Origin: a virus
Lineage: Duplodnaviria; Heunggongvirae; Uroviricota; Caudoviricetes
Reading direction: 5' to 3' (one strand)
Length of the DNA: 40,849 nt
IMG/VR virus record: IMGVR_UViG_2563366924_000005
Coordinates: 1 to 40,849 of that record
Shown here one piece after another: positions 1-26,343 of the stretch. The notes under the pieces are model-generated. The model did not search any database. It saw only the letters and a list, made by a program, of their open reading frames with translations, and was not told the DNA's origin. A program made the translations under genes and the position numbers. Each line of letters opens with the position of its first letter. Positions within the stretch are counted from its first letter, which is position 1.

Positions 1-933
1 ATGGACAACGACAAAATTGATCAACACAGCGACGAAATTGAAGTTGAGAGCGAAGAAAAAGAGCGCGGCAAAAAAATAGAAATAGATGAAGACCGACTCC
101 CCTCCCGGGCGATGGCAATTCATGAGCATATCCGCCAGGATGGTGAAAAAGAGCTGGAACGCGACGCAATGGCGCTACTGTGGTCAGCCATTGCGGCGGG
201 TCTGTCGATGGGCGCTTCGTTACTGGCAAAAGGGATATTTCATGTCGAACTGGAAGGTGTGCCGGGCAGCTTCTTACTGGAGAATCTCGGTTATACCTTT
301 GGTTTTATTATCGTCATAATGGCCCGCCAGCAATTATTTACCGAAAACACCGTGACTGCGGTACTACCCGTCATGCAAAAACCGACAATGAGCAACGTTG
401 GCTTACTTATGCGGTTATGGGGAGTCGTGCTGCTGGGTAATATTCTCGGGACTGGTATTGCTGCGTGGGCATTTGAATATATGCCTATCTTCAATGAAGA
501 AACTCGCGATGCATTTGTCAAAATCGGCATGGATGTGATGAAGAACACCCCCAGCGAGATGTTTGCCAACGCGATCATTTCCGGCTGGCTGATCGCCACT
601 ATGGTATGGATGTTTCCTGCAGCAGGTGCGGCAAAGATTGTGGTGATTATATTGATGACCTGGCTTATTGCCCTGGGTGACACCACCCATATCGTGGTCG
701 GTTCTGTTGAAATCCTCTATCTGGTGTTTAACGGTACGCTGCACTGGAGCGATTTCATCTGGCCCTTCGCACTACCTACTTTAGCGGGGAACATCTGCGG
801 CGGCACCTTTATCTTCGCGTTAATGAGTCATGCACAGATTCGTAACGACATGAGCAACAAGCGTAAAGCAGAAGCACGCCAAAAAGCAGAACGTGCGGAA
901 AACATTAAGAAAAATGATAAAAACCCGGCATAA
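1..933 (+). CDS. yfdC: Formate/nitrite-transporter-family inner membrane protein YfdC (host gene flanking argW)
   Basis: 310-aa ORF from window start with several hydrophobic helices; N-terminus MDNDKIDQHSDEIEVESEEKERGKK recognised from memory as E. coli YfdC; sits immediately upstream of tRNA-Arg as in E. coli. Confidence 0.8.
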   Translation: MDNDKIDQHSDEIEVESEEKERGKKIEIDEDRLPSRAMAIHEHIRQDGEKELERDAMALLWSAIAAGLSMGASLLAKGIFHVELEGVPGSFLLENLGYTFGFIIVIMARQQLFTENTVTAVLPVMQKPTMSNVGLLMRLWGVVLLGNILGTGIAAWAFEYMPIFNEETRDAFVKIGMDVMKNTPSEMFANAIISGWLIATMVWMFPAAGAAKIVVIILMTWLIALGDTTHIVVGSVEILYLVFNGTLHWSDFIWPFALPTLAGNICGGTFIFALMSHAQIRNDMSNKRKAEARQKAERAENIKKNDKNPA

Positions 934-1008
934 ATGGCGAGGGTTTAAGCAATCGAGCGGCAGCGTACTTACCCCGCACTCCATTAGCGGGTATACTCAT
1001 GCCGCATT

Positions 1009-1083
1009 GTCCTCTTAGTTAAATGGATATAACGAGCCCCTCCTAAGGGCTAATTGCAGGTTCGATTCCTGCAGGGGACACTA
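1009..1083 (+). tRNA. argW: tRNA-Arg (anticodon CCU), argW; integration target, forms attL
   Basis: Cloverleaf readable by eye: acceptor GTCCTCT/AGGGGAC, anticodon stem AGCCC/GGGCT with loop CTCCTAA (anticodon CCT), T-arm GCAGG-TTCGATT-CCTGC, discriminator A at 1080; the three bases after it (1081-1083) read CTA, not an encoded CCA. Confidence 0.85.
1054..1069. repeat. 16-nt segment of argW T-arm (ttgcaggttcgattcc), left copy of a direct repeat; candidate att core
   Basis: Exact 16/16 match to 40614-40629 (18/19 including one mismatch to the left); lies in the tRNA 3' half next to the integrase gene. Confidence 0.6.
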
Positions 1084-1244
1084 TTTATCAGTTCGCTCCC
1101 ATCCGTACCAGTACGCAAAATCCCCTGAATATCAAGCCTTCCGTAGATTCACAGTTCGTCATGGTTCGCTTCAGATCGTTGACAGCCGCACTCCGTGACG
1201 GGTAAAAAGTGGATAAAATAATTTTACCCACCGGATTTTTACCC

Positions 1245-2423
1245 ATGCTCACCGTTAAGCAGATTGAAGCAGCAAAGCCGAAAGAAAAACCATACCGCCT
1301 TCTCGATGGTAATGGCCTGTACCTTTATGTCCCTGTATCCGGGAAAAAGGTATGGCAGCTTCGCTACAAGATTGACGGTAAGGAGAAAATCCTGACTGTC
1401 GGAAAATATCCGCTTATGACTTTGCAGGAGGCAAGGGATAAAGCATGGACTGCGAGGAAAGACATCTCGGTTGGCATAGATCCGGTAAAAGCGAAAAAGG
1501 CTTCGTCTAACAACAATTCCTTTAGTGCCATTTACAAGGAATGGTACGAGCACAAGAAGCAAGTGTGGTCTGTAGGGTATGCGACTGAACTTGCCAAAAT
1601 GTTTGATGACGACATTTTACCCATCATCGGCGGTCTCGAGATTCTGGATATTGAGCCGATGCAACTGCTGGAAGTAATCCGCAGATTTGAAGATCGCGGT
1701 GCAATGGAGCGAGCCAACAAAGCCCGCAGAAGATGCGGCGAGGTTTTCCGTTACGCTATTGTCACTGGTAGGGCTAAATATAACCCGGCACCTGACCTTG
1801 CTGACGCCATGAAGGGATACCGCAAGAAAAACTTCCCGTTTCTTCCTGCAGACCAGATCCCGGCATTTAACAAAGCACTGGCAACATTTTCAGGAAGCAT
1901 CGTATCGCTCATTGCGACCAAAGTTTTACGCTACACAGCCCTAAGAACAAAAGAGCTTCGTTCCATGCTATGGAAGAACGTCGATTTTGAAAACAGGATT
2001 ATCACCATCGACGCCAGTGTGATGAAGGGACGCAAAATTCATGTGGTTCCTATGTCAGACCAGGTGGTTGAACTTCTCACTACGCTAAGCTCAATCACTA
2101 AACCAGTATCAGAGTTTGTTTTTGCCGGTCGCAACGATAAGAAGAAGCCAATCTGCGAGAACGCGGTATTGCTTGTGATCAAACAAATTGGCTATGAGGG
2201 TCTGGAAAGCGGTCACGGATTCAGGCATGAATTCAGCACGATTATGAACGAGCACGAATGGCCTGCTGATGCTATTGAAGTGCAACTGGCACATGCCAAC
2301 GGCGGATCTGTGCGCGGGATTTACAACCATGCTCGGTATCTCGATAAGCGCAGAGAAATGATGCAGTGGTGGGCGGACTGGCTTGATGAAAAGGTGGAGT
2401 GTTCCACCTTAACTATCGAATGA
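1245..2423 (+). CDS. intS: Tyrosine integrase, IntS-type (KplE1/CPS-53-like), transcribed away from argW
   Basis: ORF 1209-2423; from MLTVKQIEAAKPKEKPYRLLDGNGLYLYVPVSGKKVWQLRYKIDGKEK the protein matches my recollection of E. coli IntS; C-terminal HxxR...Y catalytic region (GHGFRHEF...RGIYNHARY); ATG at 1245 preferred, GTG at 1209 possible. Confidence 0.85.
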   Translation: MLTVKQIEAAKPKEKPYRLLDGNGLYLYVPVSGKKVWQLRYKIDGKEKILTVGKYPLMTLQEARDKAWTARKDISVGIDPVKAKKASSNNNSFSAIYKEWYEHKKQVWSVGYATELAKMFDDDILPIIGGLEILDIEPMQLLEVIRRFEDRGAMERANKARRRCGEVFRYAIVTGRAKYNPAPDLADAMKGYRKKNFPFLPADQIPAFNKALATFSGSIVSLIATKVLRYTALRTKELRSMLWKNVDFENRIITIDASVMKGRKIHVVPMSDQVVELLTTLSSITKPVSEFVFAGRNDKKKPICENAVLLVIKQIGYEGLESGHGFRHEFSTIMNEHEWPADAIEVQLAHANGGSVRGIYNHARYLDKRREMMQWWADWLDEKVECSTLTIE

Positions 2424-2492
2424 CACAAATCCTTGCAATCCAGTGCAAAGCTTTGTGTAAGAGCATCTTGTTGTTTTAATTAACAAATAAAC

Positions 2493-2579: not shown

Positions 2580-4475
2580 TTACAATATTCTAACTTCACC
2601 GTATACGCTCAATATTTTATCAGGAACCAGATCGCTTCTACCTTTAATTTGAACATATGGCAAATCATCAGTATTTAATTCCAAATTTGTAGAAAAGAAT
2701 ACTCCACCACCACTCTGGATTGAGCTACTAAATTCAAAGAACTCACCAGACATGAATAACCCTTTCAGTCTTACACTTCCAGACTGATGATTTACAACTA
2801 TGTTCACACTTAATGTCTCAACTGAATTATGAATTGCAGATGTCTTTAGTAACAATGTTGAATTACCAAAATCTATCCACTCAAACCCATATTCACCATC
2901 AAGACCACCTGAAAATTTACCAGCATAATTACCAGTTAATATAGAGTTGACGACATTTCCGCTAACTCCATTTATTTTCTTCCTCTGGTCTATTCTGTGA
3001 TTAACTCCAAAATAACCTTCAGGAACAATTAAGTCTCTGGTACTAGACGCAACAGAGTCATAAAATTCAACCCTTACACCATGACCATAAGTGTTTTCCT
3101 TTGTTTTTAATATCCTCCCAATGTTATCAGCATTTTCAAACCTGTTACTTCCAGAAATAAATATTTCACTAGCTGGCGTATCTGCATACCCAACAAAAAA
3201 CATTGAGTCCTTAGAGATAAAATTTACATAGTTATTTTCAAGTAATGATGAAAATACATAACTACCAAAATAAACACCAACATCATCGACATTTTCGATG
3301 TATGAGTTACATAATTTGAAATCATAAACAGCGGCATTAAATTGTATGCCAACAGTGCAACCTTCAACAGAAATACCATCCATTACAAGCGATGTTACAG
3401 GCCCATCAAATCTATATTGCATTTGGGCATTTGTTGCAATCAGTCTTGTAAATTCGTTTAAATTATGCGCCCCGCTAAAAACAAATCTATCACCCAAATA
3501 TTCCTGCGGATATTCAAAAACAATATTATCCAATTTAAGGTAGTAGTTATTGTGTGAGTGAATACCAAATGATGAGCAATTGCAAAATATATTTTTAATC
3601 TCACACCCATGATGCCAGTCTTGAATCCTTAGGCAGGCTGAACTCAACCTATTATTATCTGTGCTTGATATAATAGAGAAATTTGATAATGAGATATACT
3701 TACTGTAATGTGAATCATCACTAGAACCAAAGTTGCTTACAAGCACACCGTTATCATTATAATATCCACTCTCAAAAAGAGTAATATCTGAAAGCATGTT
3801 GAATACGCAACCGCATCCATCTATAATTTTTTGCTTTGCCCTCTCAAATGTTTCATCGAAATTTTGAGGTATAATTAATGTTTTTTTTATGCCATATACC
3901 TTACCTGGAACTCCAATTATTTTTTTGTTTCCATTAAATGCCTCTTTTATTCCTGCTTGAATGTAGTCAGAGCAGTCAATATTTGATGTGTTCCCATTAA
4001 TGTCTGGCGGTATGAAATCATCAAAAGAAAGTGTTTCCCTTAATTTAATTAATGATGTCGTGCCTTTTGCATTGTTTTCACTCTGAATGAATCCTATATA
4101 TTTTGAACCATCGTTTCCAGACAATCTTTCTTCAAGCTGATCAGGGTCATACTTCAGCACATTAGGAAAATAGAATTGCTGCGCTCCATACGCATCGTAT
4201 ACAGCCATAGAATGGCCTTGCACAGTTACGAATTTGGCAATCTGTCCGTTATATACCGGATACCCGCCAGCGTTAATGATGATTGGTTGCGAAACAGGAA
4301 CGTGAGAGCCGTCTTCGTTCTCTACATAAACCTGAATCTGGTTTTCAGGATTTACCGGGTCAGTGTCAATTTTACCGATATAAATTTTGCCATTGGCTAC
4401 GGCTTTAAAAGAACGCGCCATAGTGAAGAGTTGCGAAGGCATCGATACGATCACATTGGCTGTAATGTCTGTCAT
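2580..4475 (-). CDS. Tailspike protein: P22 gp9-type N-terminal head-binding domain fused to a divergent receptor-binding/depolymerase domain
   Basis: N-terminus [47 protein letters not shown]...[15 protein letters not shown]...NVLKYDPDQ closely matches the recalled P22 tailspike N-terminus; the remaining ~500 residues are unrelated to P22 gp9 and the DNA is visibly AT-rich. Confidence 0.85.
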
Positions 4476-5454: not shown

Positions 5455-5516
5455 GTCAATATTTCCTAATCCGATTTGTTGATACCGAAGCCCTGACTGT
5501 TCCCGCAGTTGGGGCT

Positions 5517-5690
5517 TCAACTTTTTGCTAGATTACCTTTAGAACTATCCCGCCTTAAACTATCCACTAACCGCATTACCATCTCGGTATTTATTGAGCG
5601 ACCATTTTCTTTCGCTGACTTCTCGATTGCTAACTTAACCTCTAATGGGATGCGCAAAGGGTACTTTGGTGCGTCTGACTTGACTATCAT
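5517..5690 (-). CDS. arc: Arc-like ribbon-helix-helix repressor
   Basis: 57 aa from ATG at 5690 with GGAGG 5 nt upstream; ...[29 protein letters not shown] resembles P22 Arc (..REVLDLVRKVAEENGRSVNSEIYQRV..); directly upstream of ant. Confidence 0.75.
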
Positions 5691-7369: not shown

Positions 7370-9376
7370 TTACTGCTGGGCTTTCTCACTTGAAGCCTGA
7401 ATTAGAGGTGTAAGAGTTTCAGATACCCGTCTGATCGCTCTATCATAAGCAGTACTTCCTTTTGGCGTGTTTGCTAACTTTAGTAATGCGTTCCTCATCG
7501 CGCGTGACTCATAGCCCCTGCCAGCCATACCGATACCAGCTCCAACTGCCGCAACTTTTGCAAACATTGGATTTGTAACAGACGCAAGAGCTGTTATCAG
7601 CGCTGCTGGACCAGCTACCATTTGCCCTGTTAGTGGGCTTGCGGCAGCTGTAGCTGCCTGTCTAGTGGAATCAAGATATTTCATTATCCCATCAAGCTGT
7701 TTCCCATGCTCTCCTCTGAAGAACGTCTCAGCCTGCTTCCGATTCCTTTTCATTTCATTAATAAACTTCTCAACGCTAAGCTTTCCTGAATCGCTTGTCG
7801 CCTTATCCATTGCACGCTGAACAAGTGCTGCTCTAGCATTTTGACGCCCACTATCATCAAGCAATCGATAAAGTTGCGCCCTTTCCGCTGGGCTTTGGCT
7901 GAATACTAGTTTAGTGACATCTTCTGGCGTTGTTTTACCACTCTGAATAGCTTTTTGGACACGTGTATTGCTCATCATGTCGTTGAACTTTGCCCAAGAA
8001 CGATCAACACGCGACATGTTTTGCGCTTCCTTCGCACCTAGTTTTGCGCCAACCGCTTTTTTCATGTCTGTTGTGTATGCGTTATAAACAGACTGCGCAG
8101 CTTTCTCCAGCGTATCTCTATCGACCTCGTCAGGTGCTGCCATAAAGCGCTTACGTAAGTTTGTACGGTTTTCTCTAGCTAATTGCAGGTTATTTGGACC
8201 GCTGGTGATGTCATTTCTAAACTGTTGAAGGACAGAAACAGCTGAGCGGTCTTGCGATACTCCTGGGCGAGTTAACTTGGAAATCTGCTCATCAATTGCT
8301 TTCACTGTTCCAGTGATGTCAACAGGAGTATCCCCCATCAAACTGATGATCCTGTCGTACCGCTTGCCAGCAGCCTGAATAAATTGCTGCTGACCACGAG
8401 TAGCTGATTGGTAAAGTTGTGCGTCAGATATTCCACCAACATTATCGCTAAATGTTCTAACTAAATCTTCCCTGGCCTTTTGCTGTGCATTTCTTATCCC
8501 ACCTGTTCCGGCTATTGGGATTCGCTCAGCCATAGCTCGTGCTTGCTTACCAATATTTGTTCCCGGTTCCACAAGATCTGTTGTCATCAGTGGCAAGTTG
8601 TTCTGCTTGGCAAAGTCAATCTGAGCTTGTTTTTCAGGAGCAATCTTACCCATAGCAGAACGAGACACTGCGCTTGCGGTGTTTTCTACACCCTTCAGTA
8701 CCCCACCAAGACCAGCAGAAATTGCAGTTTGAACTGGATTAACATTCTCACCGCCAGCGATCTTAGTGGCACCCTGTAAAGCTAAATCAGTAGCGCCTGA
8801 TTTTAGTGTTGCACCTACAACAGACGCAGCTCTACCTGCTGGAGTGAATGCAAGAGCATTTGCCAAGAATGACGTTATATCCTGCGGTGACAAACCAGGC
8901 TTGTTAAGTGCATATTCCCCTGAAGGAAGGGTGACTATGGAATTTCCCTTCTCATCCTTCCGGATTTTCCCGCCAATACTTTGCAGTATTTTCTCCTGTG
9001 AAGCGTCTGAACCAAATAGCTGCCCCAATCCAGCACGCAGCGCATCAGTGCTTAAGCTATTAAGCTCTGGAGCAGACCCAACATTTTGCAGTCTCTCCAT
9101 TTCTGGTGTCATTCGGCTTTCACCGGTAACGGCATCGCGCATTGCAGCACCTAAAACAGCCCCTTGCTCAGCAGAGCGATCTAGTCCTTCCTTCTGCTGA
9201 GTGGCAATCTGTGCATATCCTGATGCAAGTGAGTTGTCTGCTGGCGATTGCTGAACACCTTGTTGTGTTGGTGCTGACTGACCAGCAAAATACTCATCAA
9301 TGGCGGTGCCAATATCTTCGGTGCTCGTACCATCAGGAAAGGTAAATGTCTTACCGTTTGCAGTTACTTTCATCAT
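7370..9376 (-). CDS. Ejection/DNA-transfer protein, P22 gp16 homolog
   Basis: 668-aa ORF in the P22 gp16 slot (gp7-gp20-gp16 order conserved); Gly/Ala/Gln-rich composition typical of ejection proteins. Confidence 0.7.
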
Positions 9377-10788
9377 TCCACCGTAAATTGAATGCCTGAT
9401 TTTGAGGTATATGATCCAACCTGATTCCGTGGTTCTCCTGAAGGTGTCGAATCTTGTGCTGGCGCTGCGTCAGTATTCATTGACATATACCGCTTAACGG
9501 CACTCCCCAATGATTCACCTTTTTTAACATCCAACCCCAATATCTGACCGCCATTACGCGATTGTCCAGGGTTGCCATTCGCGCTCATCCACTCAGCTTT
9601 AAACTCATTAAACTGCGCGTTTCGTCGCTCAAGGTTTGCCATTGCATCAAGCCATCTTGCGACAGTCTCAGGGTTATCCATGTCAGTTGGTGCACCCTGA
9701 CGAACGATCTCAACGTCTTTATCCGTTGCTGGGCCGGGAGGTAGGAATTTAAGAACCTGACTGTTAACAAGGGCATTTTGGCGAATGCGCAAATCACGCA
9801 ATGTCGTATCGCTTCCGGTAAGTTTTGCGAACATGTTCTGTGCGTTACCGAACAAACCTGTCGTTGGTTTTTCTGCTCTGAACTGTTGAGCAAGCGCACT
9901 CATAGAATTGGCTGAGTTTGATGATGCTGTGGCATTGTTTACAGCCGTCTCGATGCCTTTTTCCATATTTACTGACAGCTTAGGTGCTTCGCTAATCAAC
10001 TGCTGAGCCTTTTCCTGCGCTTGCTGCATCTTAAACCCGAACTCTTGCTGATCCAGAGCCAAGCGTTGTGCTGCGATATTGTGCCCAGTCATTGCTGACT
10101 GATAGGAAAGGTTTTGCCCTCTCGCCTGAAGTGCTTCACCAGCCTGATTGCTGCGGATTGTCTCTGCCAGCCTGCCTCTGTCAATTTCACGACCAGCCAT
10201 CTTATCCTGAACAGCAAACGCCTTTTCTGGTCCAAGCGCACCGAGAGACATAGTAGTCAGCATGTGTGATAGCTGCTCTGGATTCTGGATACCTGTCTGA
10301 ATCATCCAGTCAGCATTCGCCCCCACGCGATTTAACCTGTCCTTGTTGTCAGTAATGAATTTACTGTAGGCTTCCGGTCCCTGAGAAAGAGCGACGTTAG
10401 CCCTCATGGCTAAATCGCCCATATCGTTGCGTTGCTGATCATTAAGACCGGAAAACGCCTGTTGTGCCTGTGCAACAAACGCTGGATTTTCCTGGGCAAA
10501 CTTAAATAGTCCCGATGGATCACCAGAAGCCCATGCATCAGCGTGAACCTTATTGAACGCACTAATCGCTTTCTGTTGCTGTTCCTGATTGTAAATATCA
10601 GCAACTCCAGCCAGACCACGTAACGCGGTCAGACCAACGTTATTTGCACCTGAGCGAGCCAGTTCATTGTTTTCGCGGATCAGACCAAGCGTTGCGTTAA
10701 TGTCGCTTGCCTTTGGCGCATTCTCATTTTGCGTACCGATGCCAGCCAGAAAACCACCAGAATTAATACCCTGTTGCCACGTAGCCAT
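9373..10788 (-). CDS. Ejection protein, P22 gp20 homolog
   Basis: 471 aa, the same length as P22 gp20; synteny; overlapping stop/start with gp16. Confidence 0.7.
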
Positions 10789-14688: not shown

Positions 14689-15948
14689 TTACTGGTTAGC
14701 CAGTACCAGGCCGGTAAACTCTGGAACCAATACACTTGCGCCAGCCAGCGTGGTGAATCGCGTCCACGTCTTACCTGCTTTGGCATCGAACTGGTAAGCC
14801 ATGATGATGGTCGCCCCCTGCTCGGTAGTTGCCGTCATAACCTGCGGGCCCTGCCCGGTCGGGAATGCCAGCTTGCCGTACATCAGCTCTACAGATCCCT
14901 CAGCAAAGAAGATGTTGGAAGCCGCAGCCTTCTTGTTGAGAATGGTGATCGCCGCGTTATTCGCCGGATTGGCGGTAACGTTCTGGTAAGGAATAGACGG
15001 CGCATCAGCGTTGTTTGGTGGCAGAATTTTCGGGCTGATGGTAACGGTGGTGCCATTTACCGCCAGGACGCGGAATACCTGCGACTGGCCTGTATCCACC
15101 TTCTTGATCATGTGGACACTATTAACGCCTGCGATAGTGAATGCATCACCAACAGCCAGCACGCCAGCAGTAGACACGGTGATGTCGCCCTGACGGTTAT
15201 CAGTAGGTGCGCCGTTGGAGTCCATTGCGGTAACTTTATGCGCTACTGCGCCACCAAGAGTTACGGCGGTGGCAGAACCTGCCTTCATCTCGCCAGCATA
15301 ATCAACACGGAAGCTGTCGAAGGATGCCACAGGTGGGATCTGAGCTTTCTCATACGCCGTCAGCGTTGCGCCAACTGCATATGCGCGAGAGCCAAGCTCT
15401 TTAGCCAGGTCTTTGTAGTTGAACGGGTTGTAGAACGCTTTGCGCTGCCCACCCTGCGGCACACCAATAGAGAGCATCATTGCGTCAATGCCTGCAGATG
15501 CGTTCCAGAGGTCTTCGCCGAGAGTCTTGCCGGTTGATGCCGAACCAATGGTGACCATGTTGGTAGCGCGGGCGGCCACCTCATCGACGATCAGGTTATC
15601 AACCCACGCTGCCAGCTGACGACCCGCCGCTTTACCAGCTTGCTCCTTATGCCATGGATCGCGCATTTCTTTTGCGTCCAGCTCGTAGATAACGTTTTCT
15701 GGCTCGCGGAAACGCGCAGGTACCTGACGCTGAACGAGTGAGTTTGCAGTTGCTGCGGTCAGATCTAGGCCGCTAACGGTTTTCAGATGGTAACCTTGAG
15801 GGCGATAAACTACGTCGCCTGCGCGTTGCATTTCAGTGTCGCCCGGGCGGAACTTGCTGCACTCACGGGATACTACGTTTGATGCCTCGAATCCATCAAT
15901 GACGTTTTCAAATAGGATTTCAAGGTCTTTAGTTAACTGATTAGGCAT
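14689..15948 (-). CDS. Major capsid (coat) protein, P22 gp5-like
   Basis: 419 aa (P22 coat is 430 aa) directly downstream of the scaffolding gene; synteny. Confidence 0.7.
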   Translation of the reverse strand: MPNQLTKDLEILFENVIDGFEASNVVSRECSKFRPGDTEMQRAGDVVYRPQGYHLKTVSGLDLTAATANSLVQRQVPARFREPENVIYELDAKEMRDPWHKEQAGKAAGRQLAAWVDNLIVDEVAARATNMVTIGSASTGKTLGEDLWNASAGIDAMMLSIGVPQGGQRKAFYNPFNYKDLAKELGSRAYAVGATLTAYEKAQIPPVASFDSFRVDYAGEMKAGSATAVTLGGAVAHKVTAMDSNGAPTDNRQGDITVSTAGVLAVGDAFTIAGVNSVHMIKKVDTGQSQVFRVLAVNGTTVTISPKILPPNNADAPSIPYQNVTANPANNAAITILNKKAAASNIFFAEGSVELMYGKLAFPTGQGPQVMTATTEQGATIIMAYQFDAKAGKTWTRFTTLAGASVLVPEFTGLVLANQ

Positions 15949-22709: not shown

Positions 22710-23177
22710 TTATTTCAGGCATTGCGTCCTGATGTATTCCTGCAGGTAGTTAACCTGCGCGGTTATCCTGTCGATTCCACTTCGGAGACGGTAATAATTG
22801 AGTTCAGCATCTGCTGTAAGTCTTGGGCTTTCTCCATCGCCCATGCTGCTGGCTCCGGTCGTTGACTTTGCACAGGTGGCGGCGACTTGCAGCCGCTTAC
22901 GGCCAGCAATGACATCGCTATGCAGACGCTCAATGGTTTCTTTCGCATCAGCCAGTTCTCCGGTGTATTTGGCATCCAGTGCAGCGACATCACGCTGGCG
23001 GGTCTGCATGTCTTTAATGGTGGCGGTCGCCAGGAGGAGTTTCTCAGTGGCCTTATCGCGCTGGTCTCTGTAAGTGATGGCGTTGTCGCGGTAGTGGTTC
23101 ACGAAGAAAGCCAGTGCGCCGATTAACGCCAGCACCAGCAACTGCAGCCAGTAACGCTTAACCAGTGCGCTAATCAT
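22710..23177 (-). CDS. Rz i-spanin (P22 gene 15-like)
   Basis: 155 aa, N-terminal TM anchor ([16 protein letters not shown]), coiled-coil periplasmic part; contains the embedded Rz1 reading frame; follows lysozyme. Confidence 0.75.
22763..22948 (-). CDS. Rz1 o-spanin lipoprotein, embedded in Rz in another frame
   Basis: [20 protein letters not shown] lipobox signal followed by a proline-rich segment; classic embedded Rz1 architecture. Confidence 0.7.
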
Positions 23178-23623
23178 GACAGGAACAGAGCTCGCTCTGC
23201 CTTGCGGCGATTCGTGAGCCCCGGCATCACCTTTCCGCCTGATTTATTCCAGCGCAGAAATTCATCTGCCGCGCCTTTTATATCGCCAGCATTCAGCTTT
23301 TTCAGCAGTGTAGATGTGGAAAGAGCACGCGACCCAACGTTGTAAGCGAACGACACCAGTGCGTCGAACTGGCCTTGTGTCAGCTTCACCCTGACAACTT
23401 TCAGCACGTCATTCTCATAACCAACAAGCCCTGTTTTCAGAAGCCTGTCAGCGGTTTGCTGGTCGATAGTCATACCGCGCTTTACTGGCTTTCCGTCAAC
23501 CGGATGGGTCCAGCCATAGCCGATGGTCCACGGCGCATCTCCCGTTCCGGGGTCGGGGTAAGCAGTCAGCCGACAACCTTCAAATTTTTTTATCAGAGCA
23601 ATTCCGTCAGGACTGGTTTGCAT
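23174..23623 (-). CDS. Endolysin, T4-lysozyme-type (glycoside hydrolase family 24)
   Basis: ORF 23174-23695; from [39 protein letters not shown] the sequence shows the lysozyme catalytic E...D...T motif; downstream of holin. Confidence 0.8.
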
Positions 23624-23960
23624 CGTCAACTCCCGCCTTTTTTGCTGCAAGTTTTTTAATAAGATTGCCGATCGAATCGGTGCCGATGTATCCAATAAAG
23701 ACGCTGGCTATGTAGGCGAGGTTGCTGCTCAGGCCGATAAAGTCCAGAAGGTCACGAACGAACCAGGCAATCATCGCGCACATCAGCGCATCAATTAGCG
23801 TTTTTGTTACCGCGCCGCCGTTATAGCGACCACGCAGATACGCCATGATAAAAGCCAGCATTGCACCAATACCCTGCTCCTTGGCGGCAAGTAGCGCAGC
23901 GATGAAATCTTGTTTGTATGGCAATTTTTTCTCCCTACGCCTGGCACGCGAATTGACCAT
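23607..23960 (-). CDS. Class I holin, lambda S-like
   Basis: ...[93 protein letters not shown] closely matches recalled lambda S. Confidence 0.8.
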
Positions 23961-24435
23961 GATATTTCCCCCTAAACTCTGAGATTACCAACTCAGCAAG
24001 TTCGAGATCATCGAAGTAACCCAACCAGATCTGCTTCTTATTTCTACTTCCGCAAACTCTCCATTTCCCATTCTTAACATCAAGCCTGACGCCCTTTATG
24101 GGATTCTTTCCTCCGGATGGTTTGCGTCTGTTATATTGATTTTCTGATTTGGTCGATAATCTGAGGTTTTTAATGCCATTGTTTAATGGGTTTCTATCTA
24201 AATGATCCACGTCCATTTCTGGCATGCATCCATATACATACAACCAAGCCAGCCGATGCTCTTTATAGATTTTCCCATCTATACGTATTTGCCTGTAACC
24301 AGATCCATTAATCGTTCCAGCTCTTGAGCCAACTTTAATTCTGCGATTGCTGGATTTAACCCAAGTAAAAACCCCTGAAACAGGATCATAGTGCATAAGG
24401 CTTTTCAGGACTTGCTGAGTGATTACCATTTTCAT
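23935..24435 (-). CDS. HNH homing-endonuclease-like protein (HNH plus AP2-type DNA-binding domain), copy 1
   Basis: Start MKMVITQQ with GGAGGTGA ribosome-binding site; motifs [24 protein letters not shown] and [12 protein letters not shown]; inserted between tRNA-Asn and holin; AT-rich. Confidence 0.75.
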
Positions 24436-24617
24436 AGGCCTCACCTCCGATTTTCCGGATGGTGCTGTGTGTGTTTGTAGGGGAAAGGCCGTCAGACTCT
24501 GATTGCTACATGGCATCTGAAAATGATATCTGCGGCCTGCAATAAAAAAGCCCACGGCGCGGTGGGCAATAGAGGGTAGTGCGTTGAGCTTTTGCTCTTA
24601 TGGTCCTGGTAGGTATT

Positions 24618-24692
24618 TGGCGGGACAGCGTGGACTCGAACCACGATAAGAAGGTTAACAGCCTTCCGTAATGACCTTTATACGACTGACCC
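24618..24692 (-). tRNA. tRNA-Asn-like gene (anticodon GTT) between Q and the lysis genes
   Basis: Minus-strand read GGGTCAG-TC-GTAT-AAAGGTCA-TTAC-G-GAAGG-CTGTTAA-CCTTC-TTAT-CGTGG-TTCGAGT-CCACG-CTGTCCC-G-CCA: perfect anticodon and T arms, U33, GG in D-loop, encoded CCA; one T-T mismatch each in acceptor and D stems; 4-nt variable loop. Confidence 0.5.
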
Positions 24693-24755
24693 AAATAAAA
24701 AAAGCCACCGTTGCAACTTAAGAGTCACTAACGGCAGCTTACCCTCTAATTATGG

Positions 24756-25274
24756 CTAAATGGCTAATTGCATGTCAAGGTTTTTAACAGCAACATGCTT
24801 AACTTTCTCAACACGTTTACGCATTTTGAAAGCATTTTGCATTGGTTGGTACAAAACAAATAATGACGCTTTCAGGATGTCGTCAATTTCATTTCTACAG
24901 GTTGCCAGTGAAGGTTTTCTCCATCCCTCGCCACCACGTCCACACATCTTGCGTGGCTTTGCAGTCGCGTGATAGTAGGATGCAATTGCTCGCTTAGATG
25001 AACCATGAGCGTAGTAGCTGAGGAGGATGCCAAAGGCTTTCTTGTCAATGTACATGACGGAATCGACGACCTGAGAAATCAACATTCCATCGTCATCATT
25101 ACACATTGGCCTTGTAATAACTCTTCCCGGCTCTACGCTCTCCATGAACTTCGCTATTACGCTGCTCATGCGCTTTTCCAGACGACCTGAATAAACCCAT
25201 GCGCCCCATAGTTCAAGCCATCCATTCAGCCAATCGTGCTGCTCTTTGGTGAGGTTTATTTCTCTTATGCTCAT
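24756..25274 (-). CDS. Late-gene antiterminator Q (QuuD-type)
   Basis: 172 aa; WLELWGAWV and CNDDDGMLIS motifs resemble QuuD-type Q proteins as I recall them; position just upstream of the lysis cassette and downstream of ninH/rusA. Confidence 0.65.
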   Translation of the reverse strand: MSIREINLTKEQHDWLNGWLELWGAWVYSGRLEKRMSSVIAKFMESVEPGRVITRPMCNDDDGMLISQVVDSVMYIDKKAFGILLSYYAHGSSKRAIASYYHATAKPRKMCGRGGEGWRKPSLATCRNEIDDILKASLFVLYQPMQNAFKMRKRVEKVKHVAVKNLDMQLAI

Positions 25275-25818: not shown

Positions 25819-26343
25819 TTATCCTCTCCCATGATTATGGTGATACCCCAATCGTGATTCCGCCAATTTTCTGGCATTAACGGCTAGAGATATGTCATCG
25901 TATAATCCAAGAAATATCTTTTTATTATCACTGTTTATATATGCGCCCCACTTTTTATTCTTCTTATAGTAGGCAACACCCATTACTCCAGAGCGATTAT
26001 TAATAGGCTTTTTTCTGTTCCTTGAGTTCTGTTTATCATCTACAACGCGCAAATTGCATATTCTGTTATCGCTTTTAATTCCATTTATGTGGTCAATTTC
26101 CCCATCAGGTTCTCTTCCATAAAAGGATATCCATGCGATTCTATGAGCTCGACAAACTTTTTTATTTACAGATATACGAACGTATCCTTTTTCATCTATA
26201 GAACCAGCAATCTTACCGGCATATGTTGAATTCCAGCACTCTCTTACACTTTCTCTTCTTTTGTATATAAACAAACCTGTTTCGCTATTATATTCATACA
26301 ATTCATTGATTTCTTTTTGTGTTGGATATCTTTTGCCGTTCAT
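25819..26343 (-). CDS. HNH homing-endonuclease-like protein (HNH plus AP2-type domain), copy 2
   Basis: 174 aa; GYVRISVNKKVCRAHRIAWISFYG and EIDHINGIKSDN motifs; same architecture as 23935-24435; very AT-rich; abuts rusA and the upstream gene with no spacer. Confidence 0.75.
   Translation of the reverse strand: MNGKRYPTQKEINELYEYNSETGLFIYKRRESVRECWNSTYAGKIAGSIDEKGYVRISVNKKVCRAHRIAWISFYGREPDGEIDHINGIKSDNRICNLRVVDDKQNSRNRKKPINNRSGVMGVAYYKKNKKWGAYINSDNKKIFLGLYDDISLAVNARKLAESRLGYHHNHGRG

Follow-up and report, generated by a model that had tools for sequence, protein, structure and literature searches.

A phage-21-type tRNA-Asn gene behind the late leader terminator of a P22-like Escherichia coli prophage, and its possible role as a stand-in for nuclease-cut host tRNA

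tRNA genes at the start of lambdoid late operons

Stx phages, such as the lambdoid phage 933W, carry the tRNA cluster ileZ-argN-argO between the late antiterminator with its promoter PR' and the lysis genes. These tRNAs are rare-codon isoacceptors for Ile and Arg, usually explained by codon bias, and they belong to another Q/PR' family and are unrelated in sequence to the gene described here. A different cassette is found in phage 21 and its relatives. The curated record of phage 21 lists, in order, pR', a Q-binding element, a terminator (PMID 1704887), tRNA-Asn, tRNA-Thr and S21, and the record of Sf6 lists PR', qut, tR', a tRNA-Asn described as "similar to phage 21" and tRNA-Thr. The paper on SfI reports the tRNA pair in Sf6, ST64T, PS3 and p21, and that on epsilon34 describes prophages with Asn and Thr together and others with Asn alone, for example Para1 (PMC2629481). 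The cassette supplies Asn GUU and Thr UGU isoacceptors, both with altered anticodon stems, and work from 2025-2026 on PARIS and P2 Old bears on its purpose. The enzymes concerned, PARIS AriB and P2 Old, are Toprim nucleases that cut in the anticodon stem and are borne by P2-like phages and P4 satellites.

Here we describe the tRNA-Asn gene of this type in a stretch of phage DNA of 40,849 bp, referred to below as the window. Its 75 nt recur unchanged in phages 21, Sf6, SfI, L, ST64T, PS3, BTP1, HK446, Kapi1, mEp506 and Bas106, where the copies are mostly annotated as tRNA-Asn (explicitly so in phage 21, Sf6, SfI, L, BTP1 and Bas106), and in 368 of 5,426 complete E. coli genomes (about 7%), in which the PGAP annotation is that of a normal tRNA-Asn. 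Neither the gene nor its position is new, both having been annotated and published before; the novelty implied by the original prediction, which was made from the sequence alone, was overestimated, this exact gene having long been annotated or discussed in Sf6, phage 21, SfI, L, ST64T and PS3. Its statement that P22 itself has no tRNA was correct, in that ARAGORN found none in the Q-to-lysis region of P22 (36500-41724) and the literature states likewise (PMC8022706).

The composition of the cassette was surveyed at 39 loci among the matches listed from an IMG/VR pattern scan (at least 120 stretches), which form a sample rather than a census. Within this set of listed matches, tRNA-Asn was first and intact at 39 of 39 loci while the partner tRNAs varied; Thr(UGU) followed Asn at 31 of the 39, and forms with Asn only, to which the window belongs, were a minority (5/39). 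tRNA-Asn is the first and constant member of a late-leader tRNA cassette of the phage 21 type, and the window holds a reduced variant of it, since tRNA-Thr is absent and Asn-only forms are known. Several loci depart from the common pair. In phage L (MW013502) a "tRNA-Leu(TAA)" is deposited after tRNA-Asn (1648..1719 of the extracted locus), at which ARAGORN makes no call; its beginning resembles that of the Thr gene (GCTGGTTTAGCTC), and it looks like a degenerate derivative of the gene at the Thr position. Expanded cassettes occupy the same place in Klebsiella phage Mulock and at three further loci (L041, L034 and L123), with the orders Asn-Phe(GAA)-Thr(UGU)-Arg(UCU) and Asn...Gly(UCC); Gly(UCC) is one of the tRNAs that P2 Old depletes most (preprint 10.64898/2026.07.10.737580). 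Klebsiella phage 2b LV-2017 has two different tRNA-Asn(GUU) genes downstream of Q (1501..1575 and 2396..2470 of its locus), one of the phage 21 family but ending in ACA at its 3' end, without CCA, and a second, unrelated one that is followed by tRNA-Arg(UCU).

The gene and its surroundings in the window

The left end of the window (1..2423) is host DNA carrying yfdC and argW (1009..1081), and then an intS-type integrase ORF (1209..2423). A sar antisense RNA at 5456..5522 on the plus strand (Rfam RF00262, 71.6 bits) points to a P22-type immI (ant/arc) region, and together with yfdC, argW and the integrase it identifies a P22-like E. coli prophage at the argW site. A search of this prophage for a trigger of the RecBCD-inhibitor type found two candidates in the early-left region, a RecT-like annealase (35711..36622, plus strand) and a Mu Gam-like end-protection protein (36600..37088, plus strand); RecBCD-interfering functions are among the reported triggers of P2 Old.

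The tRNA gene and the elements upstream of it are as follows.

24756..25274, minus strand: Q-type late antiterminator gene in the position of P22 gene 23, of the phage-21/Sf6 gp59 type (ORF list, Pfam PF06530)
24749..24778, minus strand: late promoter PR', TTGACA-18-CATAAT (promoter scan, 11/12 matches; function by homology)
24693..24740, minus strand: leader terminator tR', a hairpin (24740..24702) and then a U-tract
24618..24692, minus strand: tRNA-Asn(GUU) gene, 75 nt, with encoded CCA and discriminator G73 (ARAGORN, Rfam, identity to annotated genes, covariation)

ARAGORN makes two tRNA calls in the whole window, the host argW gene for tRNA-Arg(CCU) at 1009..1081 on the plus strand and, with coordinates of exactly 24618..24692 on the minus strand, a tRNA-Asn whose anticodon is gtt. 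Rfam RF00005 matches the latter with 55.3 bits, the gathering score being 29 (E = 2.2e-9, model positions 1-71 of 71). Read on the minus strand, the tRNA is GGGUCAG-UC-GUAU-AAAGGUCA-UUAC-G-GAAGG-CUGUUAA-CCUUC-UUAU-CGUGG-UUCGAGU-CCACG-CUGUCCC-G-CCA. The anticodon stem of 5 bp and the T stem are perfect, the variable loop has 4 nt, and U4·U69 and U13·U22 are mismatched; 4:69 and 13:22 are also the non-canonical pairs under the Rfam model, with no others. The anticodon loop CUGUUAA presents G34-U35-U36, and the 3' end, ...CUGUCCC-G-CCA, provides the discriminator G73 and a CCA encoded in the DNA. G73 is an identity element in E. coli tRNA-Asn. All of U8, A14, G18G19, A21, U33, G53, U54-U55-C56, A58 and C61 are present, and they are invariant across the alignment of 21 members described below. 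As a single sequence the tRNA folds unremarkably (z = -1.74), and the support for it accordingly comes from tRNA models and covariation rather than from thermodynamics. The original prediction of a 75-nt minus-strand cloverleaf with anticodon GTT and encoded CCA agrees with both programs at these coordinates, and the features it had read from the letters (one T-T mismatch in each of the acceptor and D stems, perfect anticodon and T arms, a 4-nt variable loop) are borne out by the sequence and the Rfam pairs. It had proposed tRNA prediction tools as a check: ARAGORN here, tRNAscan-SE in the papers on phages L and SfI and PGAP in the E. coli genomes all call the tRNA, and there was no pseudogene call.

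The antiterminator gene scores 89.8 bits with PF06530 (Phage_antitermQ; cutoff 26), and its region has DNA matches of 98-100%, Sf6 and Bas106 included, that are annotated as antitermination protein Q. The -35 hexamer of PR' falls within the 3' end of Q, and a promoter at the same position is annotated as PR' in Sf6 and phage 21. Between the PR' hexamers lies a direct repeat, ATTAGCCA/TTTAGCCA (24753..24769, minus strand). This repeat aligns with the repeats of the phage 21 Q-binding element, ATTGAGCA/AATGAGCA, and differs from them in sequence; in direct alignment the promoter and Q-binding segment of the window is Sf6-like and unlike that of phage 21. The tR' hairpin, which exceeds the loop limit of the terminator scan and was therefore folded separately, reaches -20.2 kcal/mol (z = -5.42; 0/200 shuffles equally stable), and its U-tract ends 1 nt ahead of tRNA nucleotide +1. 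From the hairpin through the U-tract to the tRNA the identity to phage 21, whose terminator is annotated with PMID 1704887, is 100%, and tR' is annotated at the equivalent site in Sf6. The layout in the window, PR' to tR' to tRNA, is the order curated in both of these phages. Over the 75 nt, identity among the window, phage 21, Sf6, L and Bas106 is 100%, while the promoter and downstream flanks diverge. The aligned but differing repeat between the PR' hexamers fits a Q that recognizes other DNA and has been joined to an unchanged tR'-tRNA block, with the mosaic junction placed just upstream of the terminator.

Downstream of the tRNA, the following features were located.

24601..24612, minus strand: probable remnant of the 3' end of the partner tRNA-Thr, CTACCAGGACCA (alignment; a weak, short match)
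24540..24567, minus strand: second terminator-like hairpin, GCCCACCGCGCCGTGGGC and TTTTTTATTG (terminator scan; downstream of the tRNA)
23935..24435, minus strand: HNH endonuclease gene, 166 aa, with ribosome-binding site GGAGGTGA at 24447..24440 (Pfam HNH_3)
22710..23960, minus strand: lysis cassette of the same late operon (ORF list; DNA match to phage Louie)
23607..23960, minus strand: holin ORF, start uncertain
23174..23695, minus strand: endolysin (ORF list)
22710..23177, minus strand: Rz/Rz1 (ORF list)

The CCA is followed by a 5-nt spacer, AATAC, as between Asn and Thr in Sf6 and phage 21, and then by CTACCAGGACCA, which resembles AACCAGCACCA, the 3' end of the tRNA-Thr of Sf6 and phage 21, in a weak match of 12 nt. 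This suggests that about 64 nt of a partner tRNA-Thr were deleted in the window. No second tRNA downstream of tRNA-Asn, Thr(UGU) included, was called by ARAGORN in the window. Homology to Sf6, phage 21 and Bas106 ends 2-5 nt past the CCA, and the junction after tRNA-Asn is 100% identical in Citrobacter phage Omnitron (CP115737). The region of the second hairpin is about 80% like the post-tRNA segment of phages L and ST64T, which has an annotated terminator. About 100 nt past this second terminator starts the HNH gene, just upstream of the holin gene, with 54.5 bits for HNH_3 (cutoff 24.8) and a weak AP2 match. An HNH_3 paralogue lies in the nin region upstream of Q (25819..26343, minus strand), so that HNH ORFs flank the Q-tRNA module on both sides, and HNH genes are also dispersed among the tRNA genes of T5, which hints at homing-endonuclease traffic at tRNA cassettes. 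The lysis genes show a 99.8% DNA match to Escherichia phage Louie, in which holin/anti-holin, endolysin and Rz-like spanin are annotated. The placement between Q and the lysis genes given by the original prediction thus stands, with the Pfam-supported Q upstream and holin, endolysin and spanin downstream on the minus strand.

From this arrangement a course of expression can be proposed. RNA polymerase would initiate at PR' and normally stop at tR', as the geometry seen here and the identity to the phage 21 leader point to. Q-modified polymerase would pass tR', and the late transcript would then have the tRNA in its 5'-proximal part, with the lysis and virion genes behind it. Because it lies directly after the Q-controlled terminator, the tRNA is probably made only late in infection, judged again by identity to the phage 21 leader. 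Host RNase P and 3' processing enzymes would free the 75-nt tRNA from the transcript, and no CCA addition should be needed, as CCA is encoded. The host AsnRS would charge it by way of the anticodon GUU and the discriminator G73, both of which are seen in the sequence, and the charged tRNA would decode AAC and AAU in late protein synthesis.

Conservation of the cloverleaf and alternative readings

The IMG/VR pattern scan searched for tRNA-Asn with a 4-nt variable loop, the pattern fixing both loops and two T-stem pairs. It gave a distinct family with the D-arm GUCGUAUAAAGGUNAUUACGG and the variable loop UUAU in common and with varying acceptor, anticodon and T stems. For covariation, 21 distinct members, ungapped and including that of Klebsiella phage Mulock, were taken from among the matches listed. 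In these 21 members 92.5% of the cloverleaf cells are paired, a figure that drops to 35-51% if the partners are shifted by 1 to 3 columns, and 15 of the 21 pairs show changes on both sides; compensatory covariation is seen in three of the four stems. The covariation score is 0.638, compared with 0.18 in shuffles (0/500 reach the observed score) and at most 0.18 in the slid controls; with related sequences, shuffling makes the significance look greater than it is, and the slid controls, which are the fairer ones, give a clear result. Pairs 6:67, 7:66 and 28:42 switch by double substitution between the window and Mulock. The two mismatches behave otherwise: U13·U22 is invariant in 21/21 members, and the 4:69 mismatch is present in 10/10 copies of the enterobacterial type. 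Being conserved while neighbouring pairs covary, both mismatches are traits of the lineage and not decay. The discriminator G is retained in 20/21 members. On this comparative evidence the sequence is judged to be under selection as a tRNA, and we are highly confident that it is a working tRNA gene.

The original prediction had allowed that the gene might be either functional or a decaying relic. Its functional half is upheld by the compensatory changes and the conserved mismatches, and the relic half is not. According to the latter, a non-functional tRNA-like sequence would persist as a passenger through linkage to the essential tR' and spread with that block. The two stem mismatches and the short variable loop would suit such a history, and so would the 100% identity of the tR'+tRNA block between phage 21 and P22-like phages, which recent horizontal spread could explain, and the fate of the neighbouring second tRNA, which does decay or vanish (the "Leu" of phage L is not called, and the Thr of the window is deleted). 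However, three of the four stems covary strongly by compensatory change, 92.5% of cells being paired, and the mismatches are conserved features rather than random damage, which led us to reject the pseudogene reading; GUU, G73 and all tertiary nucleotides are retained, and Asn is intact in 39/39 surveyed loci among the matches listed although its partners vary. We consider it very improbable. Slightly less probable again is that the gene serves primarily as an element of RNA processing or stability, at which entry of RNase P or RNase E trims the leader of the late mRNA or which shields its 5' end, decoding being secondary. Processing signals that resemble tRNA are known in polycistronic RNAs of other systems, and the position of the gene, at the extreme 5' end of a long late transcript between the leader terminator and a second hairpin, is one where such a signal could act. 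Yet the late operons of P22 and lambda work without it, and processing alone would not need an Asn anticodon and a G73 that are conserved across a diverged family.

A further reading takes the tRNA to be a decoding one and its purpose to be pure codon supplementation, that is, more Asn decoding for the late burst of structural proteins, unrelated to host defences. The tRNA heads the late operon, and Asn accounts for 50.1 per 1000 codons in the late ORFs of the window, with 84 per 1000 in the ORF at the tailspike position (2580..4475) and 83 per 1000 in the ORF at 9373..10788. AAC makes up 78% of the Asn codons in the 419-aa ORF at the coat position (14689..15948), and in the coat gene of phage L, for which supplementation has been suggested, it accounts for 24 of 25 (PMC8022706). 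Against this, neither AAC nor AAU is a rare codon, and tRNA-Asn is encoded by four identical genes in E. coli K-12. In the comparison of codon usage that the original prediction had proposed, a small K-12 sample uses Asn at 35-50 per 1000, so that any enrichment in the window ORFs is at most modest, and this prophage's early genes, at 47.7 per 1000, are nearly as high. Supplementation also leaves unexplained why the window tRNA is 62% identical to the host tRNA-Asn and differs from it in the anticodon stem. As the enrichment is modest and the K-12 sample small, we keep it as a rival and not as the leading explanation, and as the whole purpose of the gene we think it rather unlikely.

A possible stand-in for cleaved host tRNA-Asn, and the closest known systems

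Our overall best explanation, which we put forward tentatively, is that of a functional tRNA-Asn, presumably made late and in dependence on Q, which may serve as a counter-defence stand-in. Its selective reason, a claim resting on sequence comparison and on analogy and one that we hold with more reserve, may be to provide a cleavage-resistant substitute for the host tRNA-Asn cut by PARIS AriB and P2 Old. The stand-in would act together with the partner tRNA-Thr(UGU), which is lost from the window, and simple supplementation of Asn decoding may add to the benefit.

The nucleases have been characterized in some detail. AriB targets the tRNAs for Lys (UUU), for Thr (UGU) and for Asn (GUU) in E. 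coli, cutting between positions 40 and 41 beside U36AAU39C40; cleavage is abolished by the change U39>A and inhibited by a change at position 41, and full rescue needs the T5 versions of all three tRNAs, Asn included (PMC12409363). Lambda is restricted by PARIS (PMC9122126). P2 Old, the classic system by which lambda is excluded, cleaves tRNAs in which CNG motifs at 28-30 and 40-42 are paired; thrU is its preferred substrate, and the other tRNAs that were probed included tRNA-Asn(GUU) (PMC12445682). The tRNA-Thr of phage 21, which comes from the same cassette, protects experimentally against Old (PMC12445682), and that of HK446, a phage with the identical tRNA-Asn, gives strong counter-defence against it (preprint 10.64898/2026.07.10.737580).

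The window tRNA has the same anticodon as the host tRNA-Asn(GUU), the reported AriB target. The host genes asnT/U/V/W read UAAUC↓C (arrow, cleavage site) and have the paired motifs CGG/CCG. At the same positions the window tRNA has UAAC39-C40-U41 and AAG/CUU, so that U39 is lost, position 41 is changed and neither CNG motif is present. It would resist by virtue of C39/U41 and the missing paired CNG motifs. The tRNA-Thr of the cassette has UAAGCG, compared with UAAUCA in the host thrU. A nuclease-resistant spare is therefore plausible on sequence grounds, the determinants of AriB and Old being missing and the partner tRNA-Thr being active against Old. By extension, Asn GUU and Thr UGU may form a compact cassette against Toprim tRNases at the start of the late operon of lambdoid and P22-like temperate phages, a proposal by analogy that we regard as possible but doubtful; such a two-gene cassette would replace exactly the host tRNAs that are destroyed by P2/P4-borne nucleases (AriB, Old or relatives).

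Several observations weigh against a role of the tRNA-Asn in counter-defence. The cassette is without tRNA-Lys(UUU), the main target of AriB, and Asn comes second to it as a target of this nuclease. The five tRNAs that are depleted most strongly after Old activation do not include Asn (preprint 10.64898/2026.07.10.737580), and the anti-Old half of the hypothesis is weaker for Asn, which is not one of Old's main targets. Both CNG motifs are kept in the Klebsiella-phage (Mulock) version, so their loss is not family-wide. The absence of U39 carries little weight, as a tRNA that has diverged stands a good chance of showing it, and since a T5 tRNA-Lys with its cleavage site restored was still not cut by AriB (PMC12409363), the bases at 39-41 do not suffice for a prediction. 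The experimentally validated half of the cassette, tRNA-Thr, is gone from the window. Moreover, that the sequence is 100% identical among enterobacterial phages could be due to the tR'-tRNA block having spread recently, and not to selection acting on the tRNA. If the resistant-spare interpretation is true, minimal, late-timed tRNA counter-defence modules would occur also in small temperate phages and not just in large virulent ones, and natural variants such as this Thr-less prophage would be predicted to differ in their sensitivity to P2/P4-borne defences.

Among known systems, the cassette of phages 21, Sf6, SfI, ST64T, L and BTP1 has the identical 75 nt directly after tR' and a Q of the phage 21 family upstream, as in the window. 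Unlike the window, in which about 12 nt of a probable tRNA-Thr 3' end remain, the phage 21/Sf6-type cassette has tRNA-Thr(UGU) present; the window in turn differs in having an HNH endonuclease gene before the holin gene and, compared with phage 21, an Sf6-like promoter and Q-binding region. The tRNA-Thr(UGU) of phage 21 and HK446 shares with the tRNA-Asn the cassette, the transcription unit and an anticodon stem altered with respect to the host isoacceptor, whereas it accepts another amino acid, is experimentally active against Old and is absent from the window. The E. coli genes asnT, asnU, asnV and asnW have the anticodon loop CUGUUAA, G73, the T-loop UUCGAGU and CCA in common with the window tRNA. 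However, the host tRNA-Asn is 76 nt long, its variable loop has 5 nt and its acceptor and D stems are paired throughout, and its anticodon stem GCGGA/UCCGU, which includes the paired CNG as well as UAAUC↓C, the motif for AriB, differs from that of the window. The tRNA-Asn(GUU) of T5 has the same anticodon as the window tRNA and is likewise without U39 and both CNG motifs (UAAGUU); it differs in that it is 61% identical and is one of more than 20 clustered tRNAs of a virulent phage, where its contribution to the rescue from PARIS has been demonstrated.
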